Assembly: GCA_051294375.1 (NCBI GenBank)
Contig: CM119268.1
Span: 16,107,682-16,171,527 of the forward strand
Direction: 5' to 3'
Length of the DNA: 63,846 nucleotides
From: Paraspadella gotoi
Lineage: Eukaryota > Animalia > Chaetognatha
Shown in pieces: positions 285-39,025 of the stretch (position 1 is its first letter; every line of letters starts with the position of its first letter). The notes below the pieces were generated by a model. It had not been told where the DNA came from. It was given only the letters and a program-made list of their open reading frames with translations, and searched no databases. Position numbers and translations under genes: made by a program.

Positions 285-4760
<4,476 letters not shown>

Positions 4761-5650: not shown

Positions 5651-6697
5651 TTTTCTTATCTTTCTTTTATCTTACGATAGTTTGTCTTATTTCTTCAGTC
5701 TTCTTTCTTATCTTTCTCTTTCTTTCTATATCTTTCTTTTCTTTTCCTTTCTTCTTTTCTTTCTTCTTTTCTTTTTCTTTCTTTCTTTCTCTTTCTTTTT
5801 TTTCTTTTCCTTTTTTTCTTTTTTTTTGTATTTCTTTTTTTTCCTTTTCTTTTCTTTTCTCTTTCTTTTTTTCTTTCTTTCTTTTCTTTTCTTTCTTCTT
5901 TCTTTCTTTCTTTTTCTTTATCTTCTTCTTTTTCTTTTCTTTCTCTTTTTTTNNNNNNNNNNNNNNNNNNNNNNNNNAATCTCATGTTCAGAAAGAGATC
6001 CTACTCTCGGGAGGAAGAAACTCTCATCTCTTCACTCTTTCACTTACTCGCTCGATCTTGTGATGAAACGTTTCTTGCGAGAAAAAAAAAAACAAAGGAG
6101 ATTAAATAACTCTCTTTGAGATTCTATTTTTTTTTGTTTGATACGTTTTAACGAATTTGAATTAAGTTAAAACTTGGGTCACATCAATTACGCTGTATAA
6201 GACAAAATTTCTAAGCGACTCTTATCAAAACCATTTATATTCGCCGAAACAAAATTGTTAAATCAAGTTTTCCTTGTAATTTTTTTTATTTAATTTGATT
6301 TTGAAAGGCTCGGAATTTCATGATTTTTTTTAAAACAACTTTTCCCACTAACGCCGTCCGTAAACTGAAAGGTTGTACTTAACGGTGCGCGCACTTGGCT
6401 TCTCGAAAGACGTAACCTTCGATCACCCCACAAATTTCGAGACATGATTCGTCTCGCTCAATGTTTGTTTTCAGGTCTAGACTGGGAAGTGCACTCTCAA
6501 AAACCCAGGACAAACGGATATCTTTTTTTAGACAAAACCAGAAAACGAAAATCTTTATGTTCCGAATAACTGACAGAGATATTATCAAAATTTTTAAATT
6601 CCATTGAGATTTTATGAAATTAGTACAACCAATATAAAACTTATCCATTATACAACAGTTCTTTATCTGAAGCGATATGAAGCGAAAAATAAACAGA

Positions 6698-6891
6698 TGT
6701 GGCGGTATATTCACACCGCCTCACGTCCACCATCGTTCAGCCAATACCATCAACAGTCCTAACGACTTCCTTGAGCGAGATCGTCCTTGGGTAACCGCGC
6801 CAGTGACAGGAGGCGTCACTGAGGATCGGAAGCCCCCAAAGCCAACAGTGAGATGCCCCATCCCAATGGGCATCACAGGCAACCCGGCATA
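6698..6891 (+). mobile_element. Internally deleted solo LTR, family 1 (degenerate twister core 6775-6836)
   Basis: TGTGGCGGTATATTCACACCGCC start, ...GGCATA end, 4-bp TSD CAGA; lacks the 5' strand of P5. Confidence 0.85.
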
Positions 6892-7741
6892 CAGATTGAT
6901 TTGCTATCTGAATTATCGTTTAAAATGCGCGGTAATATATAATTCGTACTTACCTTCAGATTCCCCAATTTTAAGCTTAGTACCCGCGAGACGAGACACT
7001 CTCTCCCTCCGGATGTTGGAATCCCCAAGATTTTGGAATCATCCGGACTTTGGAATTGTGAATAAGGCGCTAATTGGGTTGAATAGTGCTATCGGATAGC
7101 TATCCGCAACTTCTTTAACCCCCTCTAGCAACCATGGCGTGAGGGTTTTTAAGACCCCTAAGGCGGTTTAATAAATGGGAATGAGCTGATGGTATTACTT
7201 AATGAGCCAGCGGCTCACGGCTGAAAACGTTGTGCTTATAGGTGGGGTGACGACTGAAACACCGAATATTTTCAAGCCTTGGATGTCATTGTAATCCCCT
7301 GGCCGTGCAATATTGGGATGTAATAATCCCCCATGATATTAGAACCCCAGAATATTTGAATGCCCCCTGATGAAGGAATTACCCGGATCTCTGAATCACC
7401 CGGATGTTGGAGTTCCTCGACTTTAGCGTGAAAAGAAGCGTTGACTGGAAACCCGGATGTTCGATCATCAGCTGCTTCGGGTGAAAATCGAATCAAGAGG
7501 AAGATTTACGGAAACGAGCAAAAAGTTAAGACTTCGTAGGGGAAAAAATGATGAAAAATACGAGTTAAAATCTGCGGAACGTTGTTAAATAATGTGGTAA
7601 AATGAAAAGAGTCGGACTGTCTCTCTAGCTCTATTTGTCTATGTCACTTTATACAATTCGTACCAAGGTTGGTTGAATAAAAAAAAAAAAGAATCTGAGA
7701 AATTTTTAATCCAAAACCGGTCTTCCATACCGAGATAAACA

Positions 7742-15228: not shown

Positions 15229-17908
15229 CTCGTTTCTCTCCCTCTCTCTGCTCTCATCTTTTTCAACTCTTTTGCAAAATTGACTCGTTACTCTGATATT
15301 TTTGACATTTCTTGTTCAGTATCAACTCTCGCTCGAAAATGTCACCCACCATTAGTCCAAACGAGCGAGAGAAGGAGAAGTCTGATCCACTTTTCACGAG
15401 TGAGATTAAAATCGAGAAATTGAAAAGGCCAAAGAAAGAGATCCAATCCAGGATGCTTTTGTCGTTGCTTGGCAACATTACCATGACTTTTTTGTTTTTG
15501 TTTTTGTCTGGGCGATCGAGCGGAGAAAGATTTCGAGGTCGGCTCCCATGTTTATTTTCTGGTCCCAAAAAATGAGAAATAAATTTTAAACAGCTTCATA
15601 TTATCCTTCGCTTATAAATATATTTTCTAGAATAAGAAAAGATAAATTTTATCCTAAAAAATATGGTTCAAAATATTTCTTACCTTTCACCAAGTCTCAA
15701 AATACAAAATTATTTTTGTCACATATCTTTCCCCCTCCCCCCACACACCTCACCAAAGAAAAAGATTGGCATTAAATTTTGATTATGAAGCGACGGAACA
15801 AAAGGTCGAACGAAAAACAAAATGTACAGTGAACTTGAATTGTTGTAAAAAGATTAAACTTGTTAAAGAATCAATTATTCGTCTTTCTCATCGTCCTCAT
15901 GAGATGTTTTTACGAATTTCTCAATCGCATATCTCTCTCTCTCTAAATCTTAGGCTGCTTCAAAACTTCACGCTTGCCCAAGCGGACTCGACCGTACAAA
16001 CCCATTAGCCTGCCCGCCCATTAGCCTCGATCCGCCCCTTCCGAACTTCCACCGTCTCGAGGATCGGGCGATGCGAAGATCAAAACCCGAAAGTCCACGA
16101 TTCGTCCAGGATAATTCTCAATTAATTAATTGATGGAAAGCAACGTCTGATCGATTCTTATTTCCAGCAAACGTCGATAACAATAAAGTAAACCGCCATT
16201 CAAATCTAATGGTATCTTTTTCGTAAANNNNNNNNNNNNNNNNNNNNNNNNNNNNNNNNNNNNNNNNNNNNNNNNNNNNNNNNNNNNNNNNNNNNNNNNN
16301 NNNNNNNNNNNNNNNNNNNNNNNNNNNNNNNNNNNNNNNNNNNNNNNNNNNNNNNNNNNNNNNNNNNNNNNNNNNNNNNNNNNNNNNNNNNNNNNNNNNN
16401 NNNNNNNNNNNNNNNNNNNNNNNNNNNNNNNNNNNNNNNNNNNNNNNNNNNNNNNNNNNNNNNNNNNNNNNNNNNNNNNNNNNNNNNNNNNNNNNNNNNN
16501 NNNNNNNNNNNNNNNNNNNNNNNNNNNNNNNNNNNNNNNNNNNNNNNNNNNNNNNNNNNNNNNNNNNNNNNNNNNNNNNNNNNNNNNNNNNNNNNNNNNN
16601 NNNNNNNNNNNNNNNNNNNNNNNNNNNNNNNNNNNNNNNNNNNNNNNNNNNNNNNNNNNNNNNNNNNNNNNNNNNNNNNNNNNNNNNNNNNNNNNNNNNN
16701 NNNNNNNNNNNNNNNNNNNNNNNNNNNNNNNNNNNNNNNNNNNNNNNNNNNNNNNNNNNNNNNNNNNNNNNNNNNNNNNNNNNNNNNNNNNNNNNNNNNN
16801 NNNNNNNNNNNNNNNNNNNNNNNNNNNNNNNNNNNNNNNNNNNNNNNNNNNNNNNNNNNNNNNCCGGCGAGATCGTAATACTTTATCTTTTAAATCTCGA
16901 GTGATCCAAATAAATGAGATAAATTCGCTTTATTACGTCACCTTGTTTTCTCCGGTTAATCATCACCTAATTATAATTGTTTAAAAAATATTGAAAAAAA
17001 TTCTAAATCAGTGATAACTAGCAAATGTTAAGTTGTAACTATTTTAGAAACGAATTAAATTACTCTTTTTTTTTCTTATCCCGGGTTATCAATCTTTCAC
17101 ATTCCAACTTCGCACAGGAGTGACCCCGTCGATTTTATTTCACTGGATTCCGTTCGCGCGACGATCGAATCGCTCGGGAGAAACTCTGAAAATCGAAGCG
17201 CGTTCGTGAGGCGCGACCAATTTTTTGAAAAGAAAAAAAAATCTGAGGCCTAATAATTTAGAAAAGAAAGAAAGATGGGCCGCAAAAATCACAGGTAATT
17301 TCACGTTTATACTTTAAAATTGAAGACTTTCTTAAACATTTCTTAATTTCATTGAAATTTTTCTTTTTCATTTACAGCCTGAATTGAGGAAAAAAAATGT
17401 AAAGTAAAACATTTTTCCGAGGCCTTAACTTATTTGAAGATAATATTACGATAATCCTAAGTATACATACTTATCAGAAAATATATTTTCAAGTTTTTTT
17501 CCCACCGTTTTGAGCATTACGTCCCCGTTTGCCCACTGGGCCCAGCGTTTCTAAAATTCACCTCTTACCACTTGAAACGCAATATTAGTTTTCTTTGTTT
17601 ACCTTTAAAACTTCAACTAAATTCTAATCTCAACATCTATTACCTATAACACTCGTTATAACCCCACTCACCACCCCGCAACCTCCATACACCCTACCCT
17701 CCCTAGATCCCCCCTTCCGGAGAAACCCCTCCCCCGCTCAGAAGAGTCGGCGTCGTCCAACGTTTCGTCCGCGGATGCTCACTTTCCCTCGCCGAGATCT
17801 GGCGACCTCCTCTTACCGCCTTCCGCCTCCGACGTCTTCGCTTCAGCCTCCGGACCGAATCTCTTCCACCCTTCCTCCTCTTCCTCCTCTCCCACCGCCT
17901 CCATCGTC

Positions 17909-18075: not shown

Positions 18076-18371
18076 GTAAGTTGGATAAAGCTTAAAGGGT
18101 ACAAGGGTTAGAGGGCAGAGTGACGGGCAGGGAAGTCGATGGACGAGGAGTGGATTAGGAAGACATTCGTACTTATAGAAATTCTTCTAAAATCGGATAC
18201 GCAGTGCTATTTCTAAAACTATTCGGGTGAAAAGAAATAGAGAAAAAAAGGTGTGAGTAAAGTAAAAGGGGGAAAAAAGGATTAGAAGGTAAGTGACAAA
18301 GAAAGGATAAGATTCTCGAACACAATCTGCGACAAACGAATAAAAGAAAAAAACGCGAGAAAAGTGATGAG

Positions 18372-18626
18372 TGTGGCGGTATATTCACACCGCCTCACGT
18401 CCACCATCCGTCAGCCAAATCCATTGGCTCAGAGGGGGAACACACCATCCCAGGCGTAGTGTTCCATCCACAGTCCTAACGACTTCCCTCTGCGTTGGCA
18501 AAGCGAGACCGTCCTAGGGTAACCGCGCCAGTGACTGGAGGTGTCACTGAGGGTCGGAAGCCCCCAAAGCCAACAGTGAGATGCCCCATCCCAATGGGCA
18601 TCACAGACAACCCGGCTGTTGCCATA
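18372..18626 (+). mobile_element. Solo LTR, family 1, in the SLC37 intron after coding exon 1
   Basis: TGTGGC...GCCATA termini, 4-bp TSD TGAG on both sides, colinear with the LTRs at 37854-38615. Confidence 0.9.
18494..18574 (+). ncRNA. Putative twister ribozyme, type-P5 permutation with minimal P1
   Basis: P5 GUUGGC/GCCAAC; P2' GCGA-GA-T1' CCG; P1 UC(CUAG)GG; U^AA (18520/18521); P2 CCGC; T2 GC; P3 CAGUGAC/GUCACUG; A; P4 GGG/CCC with loop U-CGG-AA-GC. One C-A mismatch in P2. Confidence 0.75.
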
Positions 18627-18709
18627 TGAGGATCTTTTTCGCGCCGACTTTTCAGCGGCGAACACCTAACGCCGTCCTGAAGAACGCGTTGTCATAGAAA
18701 CGCGTCAAT

Positions 18710-18751
<42 letters not shown>

Positions 18752-20959: not shown

Positions 20960-23420
20960 GTGAGTGAGGGCGAAGGGGTTTTAGGGTCGATTGTGGCGAC
21001 GACAACAATGACGACAATATCGTTGAAAAGTTTCGGAACAATTGAACAGATTCGGTGTCTTTTGGAGAAAACAGGGTAATGATTGTGTGCTTGAAACGTG
21101 TAATTAGTTGCAGAATTAAGAAAAAGCGAGCGCGTAAAAGTTTGCTAAGGAAGTCAATCGGTTAAAATTCGAAAGATGATTATGGAAGAACAAAAATTGG
21201 CCGATTTTATGTCATTCATTTTAGATTTTTTTTTAAACGAAAATTCGATCCAACAATCCGAATCGGTGATGTATAATTGTATATGNNNNNNNNNNATTTT
21301 AGATTTTTTTTAAACGAAAATTCGATCCAACAATCCAAATCGGTGATGTATAGTTGTATATGTCTTCGAAATTTCCGAATCTTGTTTAGCTTTTATTTAG
21401 TTTTCATCTTTTCTATACATATATAACGGCTTACTATTTCTCTCTTTCTTTTTGAAGCTTCTTCCAATTTCGACTTTTTGCTTTCTCGTTTCATCAAAAT
21501 CTCGTATTGACAGTTATTTGGCTTGTTCTGTTTTATTCTATTCTTAGCGCTCAATCTTTTTTATCCTATTTTTTAATAAATATTCATATTCTAGATATTC
21601 TAGCTCTTCGATTAACGCGGCTTTTTCCCCCCGATTACGGGGAAGAAGGTAGAGGAAGGTGAAGTCCCTTTTGTTTTGTTTTGTTCCGATTGAACGAAAA
21701 AGCCAGGTCGCTCCACCTTTAATCAGGTAAAGAGCAATCGAATGTGACAAAAGTCAAACCGTGGAAAGGCGAGGGAGGGAAAAAAGAAAGAGGAAAAAGG
21801 AGAGAGAAAAGAAAAAAGAGCATCGATCACTGTTGTTCTCGCTTTCGAGTTGGATTTTCTTTCCTTTAAAGTTTCCTCTCCAAAAAGGAGAGCAAAGTTT
21901 GTTTACTTGAAAAGTCAATGGGAGAGAAAATCTGAAGAAGTGGTCGCTTTTTACTTGTATTCCCTTCAGGGAACATATTTTAAACATTTTGACTCCATTT
22001 TCTTTCCAGTAAAAATTAATATTTCTTCAAAGGCATAAATAAAATATAATATATATATTATGAACTAAAACATTTCAACGTGATACAGTACTTTAAACCC
22101 TATATATTATTTTTCTTCCTTTATTCGTTATATACAATTTCTTATTAGAATAATAAAATCAGATGATTAGACTTAAAACCGTTCACAACGCAATTTTGTA
22201 TNNNNNNNNNNNNNNNNNNNNNNNNNNNNNNNNNNNNNNNNNNNNNNNNNNNNNNNNNNNNNNNNNNNNNNNNNNNNNNNNNNNNNNNNNNNNNNNNNNN
22301 NNNNNNNNNNNNNNNNNNNNNNNNNNNNNNNNNNNNNNNNNNNNNNNNNNNNNNNNNNNNNNNNNNNNNNNNNNNNNNNNNNNNNNNNNNNNNNNNNNNN
22401 NNNNNNNNNNNNNNNNNNNNNNNNNNNNNNNNNNNNNNNNNNNNNNNNNNNNNNNNNNNNNNNNNNNNNNNNNNNNNNNNNNNNNNNNNNNNNNNNNNNN
22501 NNNNNNNNNNNNNNNNNNNNNNNNNNNNNNNNNNNNNNNNNNNNNNNNNNNNNNNNNNNNNNNNNNNNNNNNNNNNNNNNNNNNNNNNNNNNNNNNNNNN
22601 NNNNNNNNNNNNNNNNNNNNNNNNNNNNNNNNNNNNNNNNNNNNNNNNNNNNNNNNNNNNNNNNNNNNNNNNNNNNNNNNNNNNNNNNNNNNNNNNNNNN
22701 NNNNNNNNNNNNNNNNNNNNNNNNNNNNNNNNNNNNNNNNNNNNNNNNNNNNNNNNNNNNNNNNNNNNNNNNNNNNNNNNNNNNNNNNNNNNNNNNNNNN
22801 NNNNNNNNNNNNNNNNNNNNNNNNNNNNNNNNNNNNNNNNNNNNNNTTTTTTTCCTTTTTGTTTTCCTTGTTTTTTTCACGGAACAAAGTTTTTTTGTCG
22901 CGCATTTGTTTTTTGTACTGATTTTTTTTTTCTTTGATCCTTTTTTTTTCTGGTGAATTTGATTTTCCCAAGTAAAGGCATCCATTTTCCTGTTTTCCTT
23001 TGCACACATCTTTTTCCCTTTTTTTGAGAATCGAACTTATGAAAATCGCTGTTGAGCCAAAACCTAAAAGTAAATGGAAAAAGAAATTTAAAATCCATTT
23101 GCCGAATTTAAAGAATTTGGAAGGAAGACTTTTAAAAAAAAATGATGTACATTTAACAATGCGACCTTTTTTTAATTTGCTATTTAAAAAAAAATAAAAA
23201 AAAGAAACAATAATAATATATCAGTATTGAATTTCCAAGTTCAACTACTTTTTTTTTATTTAAAAAAAAAATTTTCAATTAATTTTAAAATCAATTTTAA
23301 TCTCATACTATGGATAAGTGAAAAATCAGGGTCCAGCGTTTCTCATATAAAGTTGTCATATTAAACAATAAACATGAATCCCCTCACACCTTCCCCCCCC
23401 CAAATATTTTCTCCAATCAG

Positions 23421-23636
23421 GCGTTGGCATGCTCCTTTGTTCCGCGACCACCTGCGGCTTCGGTCTCGCCTACTTCCTCCAAATTCACTCTCTCCCCTTC
23501 CTCCTCCTCATCCAAATCGTGGGCGGCCTCTTCCAGTCCACGGGGTGGCCCAGCATCATCGCCATCATGGGCAACTGGTTCGGAAAGAGGAGACGGGGCT
23601 TCATTATGGGAGTGTGGAACGCGCACACTTCGATCG
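23421..23636 (+). CDS. SLC37A2: SLC37A1/A2-like, coding exon 3
   Basis: tcag| acceptor; GVGMLL...GLFQSTGWPSIIAIMGNWFGKRRRGFIMGVWNAHTSIG, the GlpT/SLC37 signature region; donor gtgaga. Confidence 0.95.
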
Positions 23637-23638
23637 GT

Positions 23639-23673
<35 letters not shown>

Positions 23674-25265
23674 AGATAGATAATGAGCGATAGCGGTGAG
23701 TACGCGAGAGTCTGTGGGGGGGGGGGATCCTAGTCGGCATTCGGTATTCGACTCTCCTTTTTCACTCTCCATCTCTCAATCTTTCACCATAATAAAATCT
23801 CTTTTCACTATCACTTGTTTCTCTGTGAAAAACGGCGGACGTAAACTCGCATCAATATGCAAATTGATTTTATTGAGACGGATCGCCCGAATCATGAGAA
23901 AATCACGAGAGCGAGATGGAGAAAGATGGAGAGCGTTACATGGGGGGAGAGAGAGAAAGAGAGAGAGAAAGAGAGAAAGAAAGAGAGAGAGAGACTCGGG
24001 GATAGCTTTTCATCGAAGAAACGAAATTTCGGTGACGTTTACAGCGAGCGGAGCGACAGTAAATCCCGTTTTAAGCTGTGAAAGAGAAGATAACGAAGTA
24101 AAGAGCGCTTATTGTAGCAAGAGCCACCCGCATTACATTATCTAACGAAGCTAAGGAAGTAATTCGGCAATTGTATAATAAAGCCAGTAAGGCAGTAACT
24201 AAAAGTTGAAGGAAACAAATAAACACTGCAATTCACTAGGTCGGAAACTTTGGTTTAAGATTTAAGAATGTAAGTATTCGTATGTACCTCAATGCAGATA
24301 TTAAACAAGAAAACTCATCCGAATATTAAAATTATTAACAAAAGAGGAAAGAGGATGAATATCACGTCGAAGTGAAGGAGTCGATTTTTTTTTCAAAAGT
24401 TCGAAACGCAACATCGGAATTCTTCACCGAAAGGCGAATCACAGCTGCTCCTTGTTAAAACCCCAATTTTCTTTTATCCTCGCTCGTTATTTTTTCGAGT
24501 GCGCACCGCGCACTGAGAGCTACATCCTGCACACTCTCCAGTCTCCACGCCTCCCCTAATCTTATTGACGAAAGCTTCGGAATCGAACCAATCAGCAATG
24601 AGACAAGCTACGCAAGCTATGCAAGCTTTGGCTGTGAGGGGATTGGCTTAGATGCCGACCGGTCGCCAACGGCGAGTCAATTCTGCTTTAATAGGAAAAT
24701 CACGGGTGTTATACCGTAATCAGAGTAAAGGCCAAGGTGCAATACAGATCCTAGTTATAAGAACGACTAAAAAATTTTTTTATCGACCTTTTAAACTCGT
24801 ATCCCCGCCTTCTTTGCCTTGTCTCGTTTCTTTTTTCTTCTTTCCTCTTTCGTCTCACCTCAACCTTCATTAATCATCGTCGCTGACGAGTTGTAAACTT
24901 TGGAAATAAACAACAAATGTCGCAAGGGGCGTGGGCCACTGGGTCGTGGGGGAAGCATGAAAGAGTGGGATGAAGGTGGAATGGGGTGAGAAATTGAAAC
25001 TAAAAATATAAAGAGAATACAAAAGATATCTAATGAAAACTAAATAGCACAGGAGTGAAGAAAGGAAAGTTGTGACGATAAACCGCGAGAAAAAAACATG
25101 CAAAAAACTCACCTAAAGTCGAAGAAATAATTTTTAAAAAATTAGAAAAACGTTCAATCAACGATAATCGATAGAGTGAAGTCTGAAGAGAAAATATTTT
25201 CTTTTCTCAGTTATTAAACGAGTCTATCAACGCCTCTTCATGCCGCTTGAGAGAGAGAGAGAGAC

Positions 25266-28694: not shown

Positions 28695-28837
28695 GTAAGT
28701 TGGTCGCAATGGGTTGGCTGACGAAAAGACGAAAAGAAAAACAAAACAACAAATACAAACCAGTAAACGAGCAAATGATAACATCTGTTGCGGCAGCCGC
28801 CCTTATTATCCCGATTTGCCCTTCGTAAATCCTTCAG

Positions 28838-28971
28838 GCCCGCTCTTAACCGGAGTGTTGACCTCGGCCTTCTCTTGGCACGCCGTCTTCTACATGCTCA
28901 TCGCGGCCAACGTCTTCGCCGTCGCTCCCCTCGTCGTCGTCTTCGTCCGAAGATGTTCTTCATCGTCGTGA
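28838..28971 (+). CDS. SLC37A2: SLC37A1/A2-like, terminal coding exon
   Basis: ttcag| GPLLTGVLTSAFSWHAVFYMLIAANVFAVAPLVVVFVRRCSSSS*; AATAAA at 29219-29224. Confidence 0.92.
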
Positions 28972-31897: not shown

Positions 31898-32031
31898 GTG
31901 AATAGAGCTTTTTTGTGAAAAAAACAAATTATATCTATTTAAATAAACTTTTTTTAGCAAGTCAATCCATGTTATTTTGATGTAATTGTCTTAACTTTAC
32001 GCTAACTGCATCCTATCTCCACTCCCCTCAG

Positions 32032-32316
32032 GCTCTGCCCGGCCCTGATTCAGCAGGCGGTCACCGACGCCTGCGCCTCCAACATCACGGCCACGCCCAC
32101 CGAGCGTCCCTCGCTCACCAAGATCTACGGCTACGGATTCTTGGCGACGCTCGCTGTCACTCTAGTCTCCCTCGTAGGCATCGTCGTCGTCCCGCTGTTG
32201 GGCAAGAGATTTTTCGACAGCATGATCTCTTGCCTGATCTGCCTGGCGATCGGGACCATGCTGGGCGACGCGCTCTTGCATCTGATTCCGATCTCGCTGG
32301 GTCTGCACAGTCACGG
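32032..32316 (+). CDS. SLC39A12: ZIP12/ZIP4-like, PAL motif and TM1-2 exon
   Basis: LCPALIQQ (LIV-1 PAL motif)...IYGYGFLATL...LAIGTMLGDALLHLIP; branch point gctaac and cag acceptor. Not in the supplied ORF track. Confidence 0.95.
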
Positions 32317-32613
32317 GTGAGAGGAGGGTATTTGTGAAGTGAAGGGGAAAGAAAAGAGATAGGTAAGAAATGAAGTTTGATTCTATTCTGCACTTGACTT
32401 TTAGTCATTTTCGCGTCATTTAATTTCATAACTAATCTTGTCGAGGCAGAAGTAAATAATAAAATCTAATGATTTAATTTAATGATTTATTGAAATTTAA
32501 TGAAAATAAAACTAAACTAATCTGTTTCCAGGTACGATTAAATTATGAAGGAGTATTTAAAAAAAAACTTTTTGTATAGTATTATGATCCAAAGAAATTG
32601 TTGATTACCCCAG

Positions 32614-32885
32614 CCCACACGAAGACGAACACACACACAATCATGACACCGACTTTGTGTGGAAAATGTTCGTCCTATTCGCCTCCATTTATTCCTTCTT
32701 CCTCATCGAGTCTCTCTTCTCTCTCTTCGCCAACAAGTGGCGCGGGGACAAAGTCGACCAAGGACCAACTCCTCAATCCCACCACTCTCATCACTCTCAT
32801 CACACTCATCACTCTCATAACACTCCTCACTCTCGTCAGATTGTCCCCAAAGACCTGAACTCGAGCAAATCCGAGGACGAAACCG
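32614..32885 (+). CDS. SLC39A12: ZIP12/ZIP4-like, TM3 and His-rich cytosolic loop exon
   Basis: PHEDEHTHNHDTDFVWKMFVLFASIYSFFLIE...SHHSHHSHHTHHSH; phases consistent. Confidence 0.92.
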
Positions 32886-33098
32886 GTATAGTGAAAAAAA
32901 AATTGTTTTCTCAGATTTTACGTTTTGTTAAGTTAAAAAGAGAAATTTTGTGAGAAGAAAAAAAAACAAAACAAAACAAACTGTGAAATAAATAAAGAAA
33001 TAATTTTCTTTAAAACATCTTTTTCCAATGCCCTTCTTGCACAGCCGAGGAGTCCAGGGAATTAAAAATGAAATTAGTATTTTAATCTTTTCTGTTAG

Positions 33099-33199
33099 AA
33101 AAGCGAATCATTCCGCTGGAAAATTTTGGAAAAGCAAAGATGACAGAAGGCCTAACAAACGGAGGTTTTGATGGTCTGGATGAATCGTGTTTGACCCTC
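33099..33199 (+). CDS. SLC39A12: ZIP12/ZIP4-like, variable loop exon (tentative)
   Basis: gttag| KRIIPLENFGKAKMTEGLTNGGFDGLDESCLTL |gtgaga gives the phase 1 to 0 bridge needed to include 33277-33337; no conserved motif. Confidence 0.6.
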
Positions 33200-33276
33200 G
33201 TGAGAAAATATAGATGATTAAAAATAAAGATTTTCTCATTTACTGTAAATTAATTAGTTAAACTTTTTACCTCCAG

Positions 33277-33337
33277 GACGATTCGGAAAGTAATCTTAAA
33301 ACGCACAAATCTTTTCAAGCGTCGGCTACTATATTCG
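33277..33337 (+). CDS. SLC39A12: ZIP12/ZIP4-like, variable loop exon (tentative)
   Basis: ctccag| DDSESNLKTHKSFQASATIFG |gtaaga, strong splice sites, phase 0 to 1. Confidence 0.7.
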
Positions 33338-33424
33338 GTAAGAGTTAAGTAAACTAATTACTATTATTATTTAATAAAAACAACTAAGTTTAATCGCCAC
33401 TTGTTACTGGTTTTGCTTGTCCAG

Positions 33425-33676
33425 GAGTTCCCTCGGTCTCCGCCCTCCTCTTGTTCGGAGACTTCATCCACAACTTTATCGACGGCGTCGCCATCGCCGT
33501 CGCCTTCTCCGCCTCCCTTACCGTCGGGTGGACGACCGCCTTGGCGGTGCTGCTCCACGAGTTGCCCCACGAGTTCGGCGACTTTGCCGTCTTCATCGCA
33601 TCGGGGATGGGGTACAAGAAGGCGTTGCTGCTCAATCTCGTCTCGGCACTGTCTGCCTTGATCGGATTCTTTTTGG
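33425..33676 (+). CDS. SLC39A12: ZIP12/ZIP4-like, TM4-6 metal-site exon
   Basis: GDFIHNFIDG (TM4) and HELPHEFGD (LIV-1 HExPHExGD motif, TM5). Confidence 0.97.
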
Positions 33677-33893
33677 GTAAGGATGAGGATTGGGTGAGGT
33701 GAAGGTAAGTTGAGCAGCTGGGCTAGTTTGAGGCCAGGGGTAAGTACTAGGTAGAAGACAGCGAGACAGGAAAATGAAAACCTTTGTCCTTTGTTTCGTT
33801 CTGCTGTGAGATTGTGTTATGTGAGATTGTATGTGATTTTGTGCTATTGCGAGATCAATCCCTCGTTCAATCTCTCCCATTGCATTGCGACAG

Positions 33894-34111
33894 GCGTCCA
33901 AGTGGCCACGGACGAGTCCGTCCAGAACTGGTTGATGGCGATCACCGCCGGGATGTTCCTTTACGTCTCTCTGGTCAACATGTTGCCCGAAGTCATGCAC
34001 AACAAATCCTCGACGCTTAATGGATTCCTTTTGCAAAATCTGGGAATTTGGACTGGCGTCATTGTTATGTTGATCATAGCCATTTACGAAGATGAACTGC
34101 AGGGACACTGA
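33894..34111 (+). CDS. SLC39A12: ZIP12/ZIP4-like, terminal exon (TM7-8)
   Basis: WLMAITAGMFLYVSLVNMLPE...FLLQNLGIWTG...IAIYED..*; AATAAA at 34263-34268. Confidence 0.95.
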
Positions 34112-37281: not shown

Positions 37282-37524
37282 TGTGGCGAATCCTAAATTT
37301 GCCTCCCGTATAGCTCTCTGAAAGAGAGCTCACACCATTGGCTCGGACAGCTAAGTCCTCGTTCGCCAACCGTGATTTCCGGGTTCAATCCCCTTGCGAT
37401 GTCTCCGGTTAAAGTGTGATGGTGTCGGCATAAACACGCCGGTGACATAGGGGTGTCTCGCTCAGGTCTAAAGCCCTGAGCGCCAGCTGTCGGGAGATGC
37501 CCGGGCATCACACATGTCGCCTCA
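37282..37524 (+). mobile_element. Solo LTR-like element, family 2
   Basis: TGTGGCGA...TCGCCTCA (TG...CA with short inverted termini); shares the 5' hairpin, CCATTGGCTC and GAGATGCCC..GGGCATCACA blocks with family 1; no clear TSD. Confidence 0.72.
37411..37482 (+). ncRNA. Putative twister ribozyme (family 2 LTR)
   Basis: AAA-P2' GUGU-GA-T1' UGG; P1 UG(UCGG)CA; U^AA (37431/37432); P2 ACAC; T2 GC; P3 GACAU/GUGUC; P4 CGCUCAGG/CCUGAGCG with loop U-CUA-AA-GC. All twister core nucleotides present. Confidence 0.8.
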
Positions 37525-38221
37525 TATTCATACTATAATTTTTGTTTTCAACGATTAATTGATAACCTTCTTCCCTAGCGTCGTTAGGCAATTAGTTAGA
37601 GAGATAACGAGTTTATTTACTTTTTGTTTTATTATTATTTTTTCGTTATAAACCTCAGATTTAACTAGAGAAAAAACTTTTTAAAAAAGGCGATCGGAAA
37701 TGCAGAGTCACGTTTCTTTCTTTTTTCCCCCCCCGTTTCAAGTTTACTCGCCCCCAATATCTTTTCTTTCTTTTTCTTTAATTCGCTTTGTAATTATTTT
37801 TTCCACTCTATTTTCGCTCGTGTTTGTTAACATGTTATGGGCAAATTGGGCATTATGGCAACAGCCGGGTTGCCTGTGAATGCCTTGGGATGGTGCATCT
37901 CACTGTTTGAGCTTTGGGGGCTTCCCGACCCTCAGTGACGCCTCAGTCAGCTGGCTGGCGGTTACCCTAGGACGTCTCGCTTTGCCAACGGCAGAGGAAG
38001 GTCGTTGAGACCTGGGATGGAACAACTAACGCTTGGATGGGTGTTCCCCCTCTGAGCCGAATGGATTTGGCCTAAGGACGGTGGACGTGATGGCAGTGTG
38101 AATATACCGCCAAGGATTCCCCGGGCCAAGACATCGACTCAGCGTTCCTCAAGCCTGAAGAGTGTGTCTGACAAGACTTGTTAACCATAGTGGGAGAGAG
38201 AGAGGAGCGCTGAGTTTGTGG

Positions 38222-38316
38222 GGCATAGGCGTTTGTCGTAGCGTACCCCAGGGGCATAGGCATTTGTCGTAGCGTTACCGAAGTCGGCAGGGCATAGGCG
38301 TTGTCGTAGCGTACCC
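38222..38316. repeat. Three copies of a 25-27 bp unit inside the miniature LTR element
   Basis: ggcataggc(g/a)tttgtcgtagcgtacc repeated 3 times with short spacers. Confidence 0.9.
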
Positions 38317-38318
38317 TG

Positions 38319-38351
38319 GAAGGTTGCTGTGTTCGATAGTAGGGCTCACCA
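38319..38351 (-). promoter_or_regulatory. Extended primer-binding site complementary to the 3' part of a tRNA-Trp-like tRNA
   Basis: Plus strand reads gaaggttgctgtgttcgatagtagggctcacca, compared with the recalled metazoan tRNA-Trp 3' part gaaggttgcgtgttc...cggggtca-cca; includes the post-transcriptional CCA. Confidence 0.72.
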
Positions 38352-38730
38352 CTGTATGGGCAACAGCCGGTGTTGCCTGTGATGCCATGTGGGATGGGGC
38401 ATCTCACTATTGGCTTTGGGGCTTACGACCCTCAGTTGACGCCTCCAGTCACTGCGCGGTTGTTTACCTAGGACGGTCTCGCTTTGCCAACGCAGAGGGA
38501 AGTCGTGAGGACTGGTGGATGGAACACTTACGCTTGGGATGGTGTGTTCCCCCTCTGAGCCAATGATTTGGCTGAAGGACGGTGGACGTGAGGCAGTGGT
38601 GAATATACCCGCACAGCATAATCTTTATATTATTTCTTAACTTTCGCTCGATGACCTAAATTTACATTGTAAGTACAGTCTTTGAAAAAAAAAATAATTG
38701 TTGTTTCGAGCGCCAACCACATTATTTGAA

Positions 38731-38798
<68 letters not shown>

Positions 38799-38961
38799 TC
38801 TCTCTCTCTCGCTTCGCCACGACGACATCGAGGACGGGAAATTACGATCTGAATCGAGTCGTAATTCTTTCCAACCTTCATTCAACGTCATAAGGAATTT
38901 ATGGTGTTTTTCATCGGGGATCCTCATCATGTACAAGATGGAGATTGTCCGCTAGAGAGAG

Positions 38962-39025
<64 letters not shown>

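Follow-up and report, generated by a model that had tools for sequence, protein, structure and literature searches.

The stretch of Paraspadella gotoi DNA analyzed here (63,846 nucleotides of contig CM119268.1, hereafter the window) harbors on its minus strand, at 37854-38615, a 762-base non-coding element bounded by two long terminal repeats (LTRs), and each LTR carries, in the sense of the element, a motif, damaged in this copy and intact in solo LTRs of the window, that is very probably a real type-P5 twister. Judged from its sequence, the element appears to be a twister-for-hammerhead form of the retrozyme kind, which is new in the literature that was searched. In the portions of that literature available to us, retrozymes carry hammerheads, either in LTR elements of plants or in tandem repeats of animals (PMC7229834, PMC6765202). 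The biological role of twister is largely open, and the literature found links it only to the 5′ processing of non-LTR elements.

Architecture and copies of the element

The window-left repeat (37854-38112, minus strand) is the 3′ LTR in element sense, and the window-right repeat (38355-38615, minus strand, with 38357 as an alternative start) is the 5′ LTR, both being about 260 bp long. Pairwise alignment of 37854-38112 with 38357-38609 gives 84% identity over 263 aligned columns, with many 1-nt indels. In element sense the LTR starts with TGTGGCGG and ends with GTTGCCATA. The element is flanked by a 4-bp target-site duplication (TSD), GCAT, the left copy of which lies at 37850-37853 and the matching right copy at 38616-38619. 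The non-coding interior (38113-38354, minus strand; length given as 244 bp) contains a tandem repeat with a unit of 31-37 nt (2.7 copies, 38222-38316), a short purine run, GGGGAA, read from 38122 to 38117 and 5 nt off the sense-3′ LTR, and a site resembling a primer-binding site (PBS), TGGTGAGCCCTAC, at 38339-38351 on the minus strand. This PBS-like site was found by reading the sequence 3 nt past the sense-5′ LTR; it is initiated by TGG, runs from 38351 to 38339 and looks like a primer-binding site for a tRNA. The LTR termini and PBS-like site of the element read TGTGGCG...CATA and TGGTGAGCC, respectively. The GC content of the element is 56%, compared with 38% for the window. As to coding capacity, no Pfam family was matched by the three stop-to-stop frames (92-116 aa) that overlap the element. 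The two-LTR layout of 762 bp with a GCAT duplication and the lack of any open reading frame (ORF), both claimed in an earlier note on this DNA, are thus borne out by the aligned repeats, by the GCAT at both ends and by the lack of Pfam matches. To the tRNA-type PBS of that note corresponds the TGG-type stretch 3 nt after the sense-5′ LTR; a tRNA gene was not found in the window.

Two further insertions of the same family (family A) are present in the window as solo LTRs on the plus strand. One (18372-18626) is flanked by TGAG at 18368-18371 and 18627-18630, and the other (6698-6891), which has internal deletions, by CAGA at 6694-6697 and 6892-6895. Their boundaries are the exact LTR boundaries of the full element, as would be expected from LTR-LTR recombination. 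The TSD is 4 bp long and exact in all three family A insertions (GCAT, TGAG and CAGA). A 5-bp duplication combined with an LTR one base shorter would suit both solo LTRs and fail for the full element, and the length of 4 bp was kept.

The number of copies was surveyed by placing contigs of two public DNA runs from one organism, X1 and X5, on positions 37700-38800 at a likeness of at least 80%. Matching contigs numbered 3,471 in X1 and 997 in X5, and the LTR and the interior were both hugely over-represented relative to the unique flanks, the depth of which was low. Constant LTR ends stood against variable, AT-rich flanks (in X1, 43 loose ends fall on 38372 and 37 on 38598), as discrete integrase-type termini predict, and the PBS-side junction, with variants, recurred in other contigs of the family. 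The element at 37854-38615 is one decayed member of a family that is highly repeated. Because the summed depth in X1 over the interior repeat stretch 38218-38254 is very high (404,119, among the highest of the element), the 31-37-nt unit may occur outside the element too. In collections of metagenome, genome and viral contigs searched without the window's own genome, an exact LTR 21-mer was found at no locus, and a degenerate pattern of the core shared by families A and B was likewise found at none in the metagenome and genome contigs.

A type-P5 twister motif in two LTR families

In the rows of Table 1 of PMC8501958 used for comparison, the twister segments follow one another in the order P1, UAA, a 4-nt P2, GC, P3, P4 and L4 (GUCCCAAGC), and then P4′, GUAAA, a 4-nt P2′, L1 (GAGGG) and P1′. 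The family A solo LTR at 18372-18626 contains every one of these segments with equal spacings, in a circularly permuted order that is opened next to the AAA, at P5. Its intact type-P5 motif (18494-18574, plus strand) begins with P5 (GUUGGC/GCCAAC), AAA, P2′ (GCGA), L1 (GACCG) and P1 (UC[CUAG]GG), continues on the cleavage side with U^AA at 18520/18521, P2 (CCGC), L2 (GC) and the P3 hairpin, and ends with P4 (AGG-G/C-CCC), L4 (GUCGGAAGC), CCCC, AAA and P5′ (GCCAAC). Relative to the published rows, CC in L4 has changed to GG, and this change is matched by one of GG to CC in L1; the paired changes imply that the T2 pseudoknot is kept in family A.

A descriptor derived from the published parse was run on both strands of the 64-kb window. 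The full descriptor has exactly two matches, one at 18494-18574, where the earlier note had seen a clean motif in element-sense orientation, and one at 37405-37494, and in both the conserved unpaired bases (AAA, GA, UAA, GC and G-U...AAGC) are complete. In dinucleotide shuffles of the window the full motif was found in none of 300, and its 3′ half at a rate of 0.07 per shuffle as opposed to the two observed. The two matches are far more than chance yields in these shuffles.

The second match belongs to a diverged family, family B, represented by a solo LTR of 251 bp at 37282-37532 on the plus strand. It was not found by blastn with family A, and its flanks, CTAG and CTAT, agree in three of four TSD bases. 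The intact type-P5 motif of family B (37405-37494, plus strand) consists of AAA, P2′ GUGU, L1 GAUGG, P1 UG[UCGG]CA, U^AA at 37431/37432, P2 ACAC, L2 GC, P3, P4 CUCAG-G/C-CUGAG and L4 GUCUAAAGC. Both families therefore share AAA, a 4-nt P2′, an L1 of GA plus 3 nt, an 8-nt mini P1, UAA, a 4-nt P2, GC, P3, P4 and a 9-nt L4 of the form G-U-NNN-AAGC. The Rfam model Twister-P5 (RF02684) aligns with family B over its whole length (model positions 1-58 of 58; 37414-37478; 19.3 bits, E 0.031 in a 131-nt search), and in this alignment P2′, L1, P1, UAA, P2, GC and P4 are assigned as in our parse. The score is lost in the inserted P3, in the 4-nt P1 loop and at the altered T2 bases. For family A, the Rfam match is to the twister-P1 model and spans GCC, P3, P4/L4 and AAA; the 5′ half alone (18488-18531) had no Rfam match. 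At E values up to 10, no twister was reported by Rfam in 37800-38700, and no hammerhead in 37800-38700 or 18250-18750. Running the Rfam twister models on the LTRs was a check proposed by the earlier note; in it no gathering score was reached, family A aligned partially and family B from end to end.

The alignment of families A and B produced by MAFFT has four common blocks, namely the TGTGGCG start, CCATTGGCTC, the twister, and a tail hairpin, GAUGCCC...GGGCAUC. Across the twister, 49 of 90 columns (54%) are alike and the unpaired core is identical. The paired segments read CCGC/GCGA in A and ACAC/GUGU in B for P2, UC..GG and UG..CA for P1, AGGG/CCCC and CUCAGG/CCUGAG for P4, and CGG/CCG and CUA/UGG for T2, which is CCC/GGG in the published rows; P3 is likewise altered on both sides. 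P2, P4 and T2 are kept by compensatory change between the two LTR families. In an alignment of five copies, 83.4% of the cells are in standard pairs, compared with 32-45% after sliding the 3′ partners along by 1-3 columns, and eight pairs are altered on both sides, compared with 0-1 in the slid controls. One of the eight (T1, columns 52/89) comes from a misaligned decayed row, and the others are A-versus-B differences. None of 500 shuffles reached any of five pairing measures. With a covariance model built from A and B (R1), five copies were recovered, and the window contained nothing further at E below 1. From the sequence comparisons, we take the motif to be a genuine twister fold of the P5 permutation, maintained by selection, and catalysis by it may be presumed.

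Two other parts of the LTR are also conserved between the families. The hairpin directly 3′ of the twister is present at 18580-18603 (GAUGCCC...GGGCAUC) in A and as a 14-nt palindrome, GAUGCCCGGGCAUC, at 37496-37509 in B, and the block CCATTGGCTC, upstream of the twister, lies at 18421-18430 and 37335-37344. A tRNA-derived promoter box in the LTR was considered and rejected, as ARAGORN reported no tRNA and Rfam no tRNA-like match in 18250-18750 and 37282-37412.

The twisters of the 762-bp copy itself are damaged. Neither of its LTRs matches the descriptor, the conserved unpaired bases being incomplete there, and R1 scores are reduced relative to the 94.7 bits of the solo LTR twister at 18494-18574, all of which agrees with the earlier note, in which indels had been reported in both cores. 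In the sense-5′ LTR (38402-38491, minus strand; predicted U^A at 38466/38465; 54.3 bits) there are extra bases after UAA, L2 GC is shortened and a G in L4 is changed to U. In the sense-3′ LTR (37898-37989, minus strand; predicted U^A at 37964/37963; 40.1 bits) the T2 partner has a 1-nt deletion, and P3, L4 and P5 have insertions. The twister of the internally deleted solo LTR (6770-6853, plus strand; 59.8 bits) is without the 5′ strand of P5 and the AAA. Several indels of the window-left LTR are private to it. The X1 depth without them amounts to 242,928 of 260,301 at 37924, 11,831 of 13,810 at 37950, 10,048 of 13,727 at 37956 and 122,018 of 138,460 at 37973; in the majority of the family depth, the extra bases at the first three positions are absent and a G is inserted behind 37973. 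These four positions correspond to three of the twister defects, namely the extra base in L4, the insertions in P3 and the deletion in the T2 partner. The private indels may be mutations or assembly errors, and instead of mutation, assembly noise could also account for the dense single-base indels by which the two LTRs differ. As this copy is damaged, any activity would have to come from other members of the family.

Proposed retrozyme-like propagation and rival readings

The predicted cleavage sites, at 38466/38465 and 37964/37963, are 502 nt apart and each lies 149 nt into its LTR; the earlier note had put them at about 38466 and 37964, with a monomer of about 500 nt, which agrees with this prediction. 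In intact copies, the sense-strand twister in each LTR would cut any spanning transcript twice, at U^AA. The product would be a 502-nt RNA with 5′-OH and 2′,3′-cyclic phosphate ends, made up of the interior, the PBS-like site and the equivalent of one LTR. If these ends were joined, a circle would result in which one LTR is complete again. The reverse transcriptase (RT) of an autonomous LTR element could prime at the PBS-like site and go around the circle more than once, and such a rolling copy would give LTR-interior-LTR DNA without strand transfers. The whole scheme would be that of the plant retrozyme model, as outlined in the available text of PMC7229834 and PMC6765202, with twister replacing the hammerhead. 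On balance, and by analogy with plant retrozymes, we lean towards the view that intact copies self-cleave in both LTRs and that the RNA of about 502 nt is circularized and copied in trans. Catalysis, ligation to a circle, priming at the PBS and mobilization in trans are steps that we infer.

A number of observations weigh against this reading. Regarding the LTR features, ARAGORN found no tRNA gene in the window and the PBS-like site is without a tRNA match, the polypurine run is weak, short and does not abut the LTR, and the LTR ends in ...CATA and not in ...CA. Regarding the ribozyme, the whole window has no Rfam match at gathering thresholds; family A has only its partial match to twister-P1 (18526-18569), with 15.8 bits against a threshold of 67.2, and the 19.3 bits of family B are below the 37.6 required for Twister-P5. 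The 8-nt stretch between L1 and UAA could form a P1 of just 2 bp and a tetraloop in both A and B, and family A has mismatches in P2 (C.A) and P4 (A.C). In the available text of PMC8501958, twister variants are reported to be active with as many as four mismatches in P1, and cleavage without P1 is inefficient yet possible. The minimum free energy of the motif is no better than that of shuffles (z -1.62, with pseudoknots outside the folding model), and the predicted 502-nt monomer, folded from the sequence of the damaged copy and again with pseudoknots outside the model, does no better than shuffles either (z -1.32). The covariation set consists of two independent families and three decayed copies of one of them, its structure was derived from those very sequences, and the descriptor by which family B was first detected requires pairing, although the 3′-half descriptor, which needs just 3 bp of P4, locates the same two sites. 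As assembled, neither twister of the 762-bp element is intact, and transcription through both LTRs is a presumption. Finally, the window offers no enzyme. Out of 250 stop-to-stop frames of at least 75 aa, 90 were dropped as low-complexity (the top three residues making up at least 50%) and 160 were scanned against Pfam, and these contained no RT, integrase or GIY-YIG domain. No autonomous partner was found among them, the matches being MFS and ZIP host exons and weak low-complexity hits, nor was one found among the 15 ORFs of at least 150 aa. The earlier reading of a twister-LTR element is upheld in part, for the LTR layout and, through the parse, the shuffles, the covariation and the sub-threshold Twister-P5 alignment of family B, for the type-P5 twister motif. 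The self-cleavage, the circularized monomer of about 500 nt and the Gypsy-type partner that it proposed are predictions.

It could also be that the twister is active but serves linear RNA processing only, such as trimming or the definition of RNA ends, with neither a circle nor a retrozyme cycle, which we regard as unlikely. The role of twister known from retroelements, in the available text of PMC8501958 and PMC7761336, is indeed the 5′ processing of Perere-3/RTE, and the predicted monomer is not unusually structured, both of which would suit such a role. However, the presence of one ribozyme per LTR would result in two cuts, a unit-length RNA and ligatable ends, which is the geometry of retrozymes, and a cut 149 nt into the LTR would strip part of the 5′ LTR from a conventional genomic RNA.

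The main structural rival takes the repeats not for integrase-type LTRs but for the pseudo-LTRs of some non-LTR element, Penelope-like or other, or else takes the element for a 1.5-unit tandem of a 502-bp retrozyme; in either case the element would spread by target-primed reverse transcription, with twister replacing the hammerhead. Animal retrozymes and the pseudo-LTRs of Penelope carry ribozymes according to the available parts of PMC7229834, PMC6765202 and 10.64898/2026.07.22.740005, the LTR ends are TG...ATA instead of TG...CA, and the polypurine tract is weak. In addition, the same window contains a tandem array with twister matches, on the minus strand at 2256-3210 (period 306, 3.2 units). 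Two of its units match Rfam Twister-P5 from end to end (2319-2361, 27.8 bits, E 0.0016; 2920-2963, 25.3 bits, E 0.0071; 1,051-nt search), below the gathering score of 37.6. Against a pseudo-LTR origin, the start is alike in all three insertions of family A and in the LTR of family B, both ends are fixed in many contigs, and the duplications are 4 bp long in three of three family A insertions and agree in three of four bases in B. Solo units with exact LTR boundaries exist, a TGG site follows the 5′ LTR, the GC content of 56% differs from the low GC content of animal non-LTR retrozymes (PMC7229834, as far as its available text goes), and GIY-YIG and RT domains were not found in the frames of the window. 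Taken together, these points would make such an origin quite improbable.

The motif of the 306-bp array has the L1 of family B (GAUGG), a T2 of CCA/UGG, a palindromic P1 (AGGCCU), an L2 without G and an L4 that ends in GU. A weak R1 match at 2906-2972 (8.1 bits) was considered as a third LTR copy and rejected, since it has no overall homology to the LTRs of A or B and belongs to the array. From its sequence, the array looks like the twister counterpart of the animal tandem (non-LTR) retrozymes. In the text of PMC6765202 available to us, the hammerheads of Penelope function as dimers and their stem III loop is palindromic, and the P1 segment is palindromic both in family A (CCUAGG) and in the array. 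By this analogy, one could imagine that twister-based circular-RNA retroelements come in two forms here, LTR retrozymes (A and B) and 306-nt tandem retrozymes, in which the palindromic P1 makes the twister cut only as a domain-swapped dimer, so that processing would be confined to transcripts with a pair of LTRs or a pair of tandem units; we consider this unlikely.

Least probable of all, and in our opinion very improbable, is a chance or relic resemblance without catalysis, the LTR blocks serving other roles such as promoter or integrase sites: all Rfam scores are below gathering, P1 is minimal, P2 and P4 have mismatches in family A and conservation within a young repeat family whose copies are alike by descent says little, but the motif occurs in none of 300 shuffles, P1, P2, P4 and T2 show compensatory changes around an invariant core between families with 54% of columns alike, and P1-mismatched variants are reported to be active (PMC8501958, available text).

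Should a twister indeed be kept by selection within the LTRs of two diverged miniature LTR families, the retrozyme strategy would have arisen again with a different ribozyme class, LTR-type retrozymes would exist beyond plants, and twister would have a second, testable natural function. The high copy number and the predictable cleavage site would make cleavage, circles and the partner element directly testable.

As to the remainder of the window, its plus strand contains host exons (23378-23680, 28699-28968 and 32006-34108). Some of them have MFS_1 matches, as in an MFS transporter, and four belong to a zinc transporter of ZIP4/12 type, the best named relatives of which are deuterostome proteins with about 50% identity, which points to an animal genome. 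The ZIP gene is followed, about 3 kb downstream, by the twister-bearing LTRs at 37282-38615, and an inverted pair of long microsatellites, (CT)n and (AG)n, is found beside the element at 38733-38812 and 38936-39000. The window is a gapped scaffold with 12 runs of N (for example 16228-16863 and 22202-22846), 1,997 N in total.

Relation to known systems

Terminal-repeat retrotransposons in miniature (TRIMs) are shorter than 1 kb and non-coding, have short LTRs and a PBS, and occur in high copy number with many solo LTRs. The element at 37854-38615 is like them in these features, with a PBS-like site in place of a PBS, and differs by the twister motif in the LTR of its family; to our knowledge, TRIMs have not been reported to bear a ribozyme in the LTR. 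With the type-P5 twisters of Rfam (RF02684, clan CL00120), families A and B have in common the order P2′-L1-P1-UAA-P2-GC-P4/L4 and the conserved unpaired bases. They differ in remaining below the gathering score, in having a P3 hairpin in place of the short linker of the model, in a P1 cut to 2 bp and 4 nt, and in a T2 that is flipped or changed (CGG/CCG, CUA/UGG).

The twisters of Perere-3/RTE, as far as the available text of PMC8501958 describes them, are similar in their degenerate P1, in belonging to a high-copy retroelement and in a segment table that fits our parse. They are, however, of type P1 and serve 5′ processing and translation, with a single copy at the 5′ end of each autonomous non-LTR element; in the non-coding LTR element described here, a permuted twister motif is located within either LTR. 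In a 2020 review, RTE elements are mentioned as having truncated twisters at the 5′ end (PMC7761336), and a paper of November 2026 cites just the Schistosoma non-LTR case for twister (PMC13725137), both in the portions available to us. The literature accessible in this way contained no twister in an LTR element or retrozyme and linked twister to non-LTR elements only, in line with the earlier note, to whose author no LTR/TRIM element using twister was known; the supplements of Roth et al. 2014 may list loci without their context.

Animal non-LTR retrozymes and the hammerheads in Penelope-like pseudo-LTRs resemble our element in being ribozyme-bearing, non-autonomous animal repeats. The palindromic stem III loop of Penelope hammerheads (PMC6765202, available text) also has a parallel in family A, where a short palindromic helix, CCUAGG, closes the ribozyme motif. 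However, in the available description (PMC7229834) animal non-LTR retrozymes are tandem, low-GC and hammerhead-bearing, without LTR, PBS or short fixed TSDs, in contrast to the 762-bp element with its LTR hallmarks. It is the array at 2256-3210, and not the 762-bp element, that resembles animal tandem retrozymes.

The closest comparison is with the LTR retrozymes of plants, here as given in the available parts of Cervera, Urbina and de la Pena 2016 (PMC4918200) and of PMC7229834 and PMC6765202. The ribozyme there is a type III hammerhead and here a putative type-P5 twister; the host here is an animal, the LTRs are of about 255 bp and the distance between ribozymes is about 500 nt instead of about 700. 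In our element, moreover, the polypurine tract is weak, the PBS-like site is without a tRNA match and the circle is a prediction only. Plant LTR retrozymes and the element described here are nevertheless alike in being small and non-coding with two LTRs, in having one sense ribozyme or ribozyme motif per LTR, a 4-bp TSD and a PBS or PBS-like site by the 5′ LTR, in a GC content above 55% and in occurring in many copies, with a unit-length RNA predicted between the cleavage sites.

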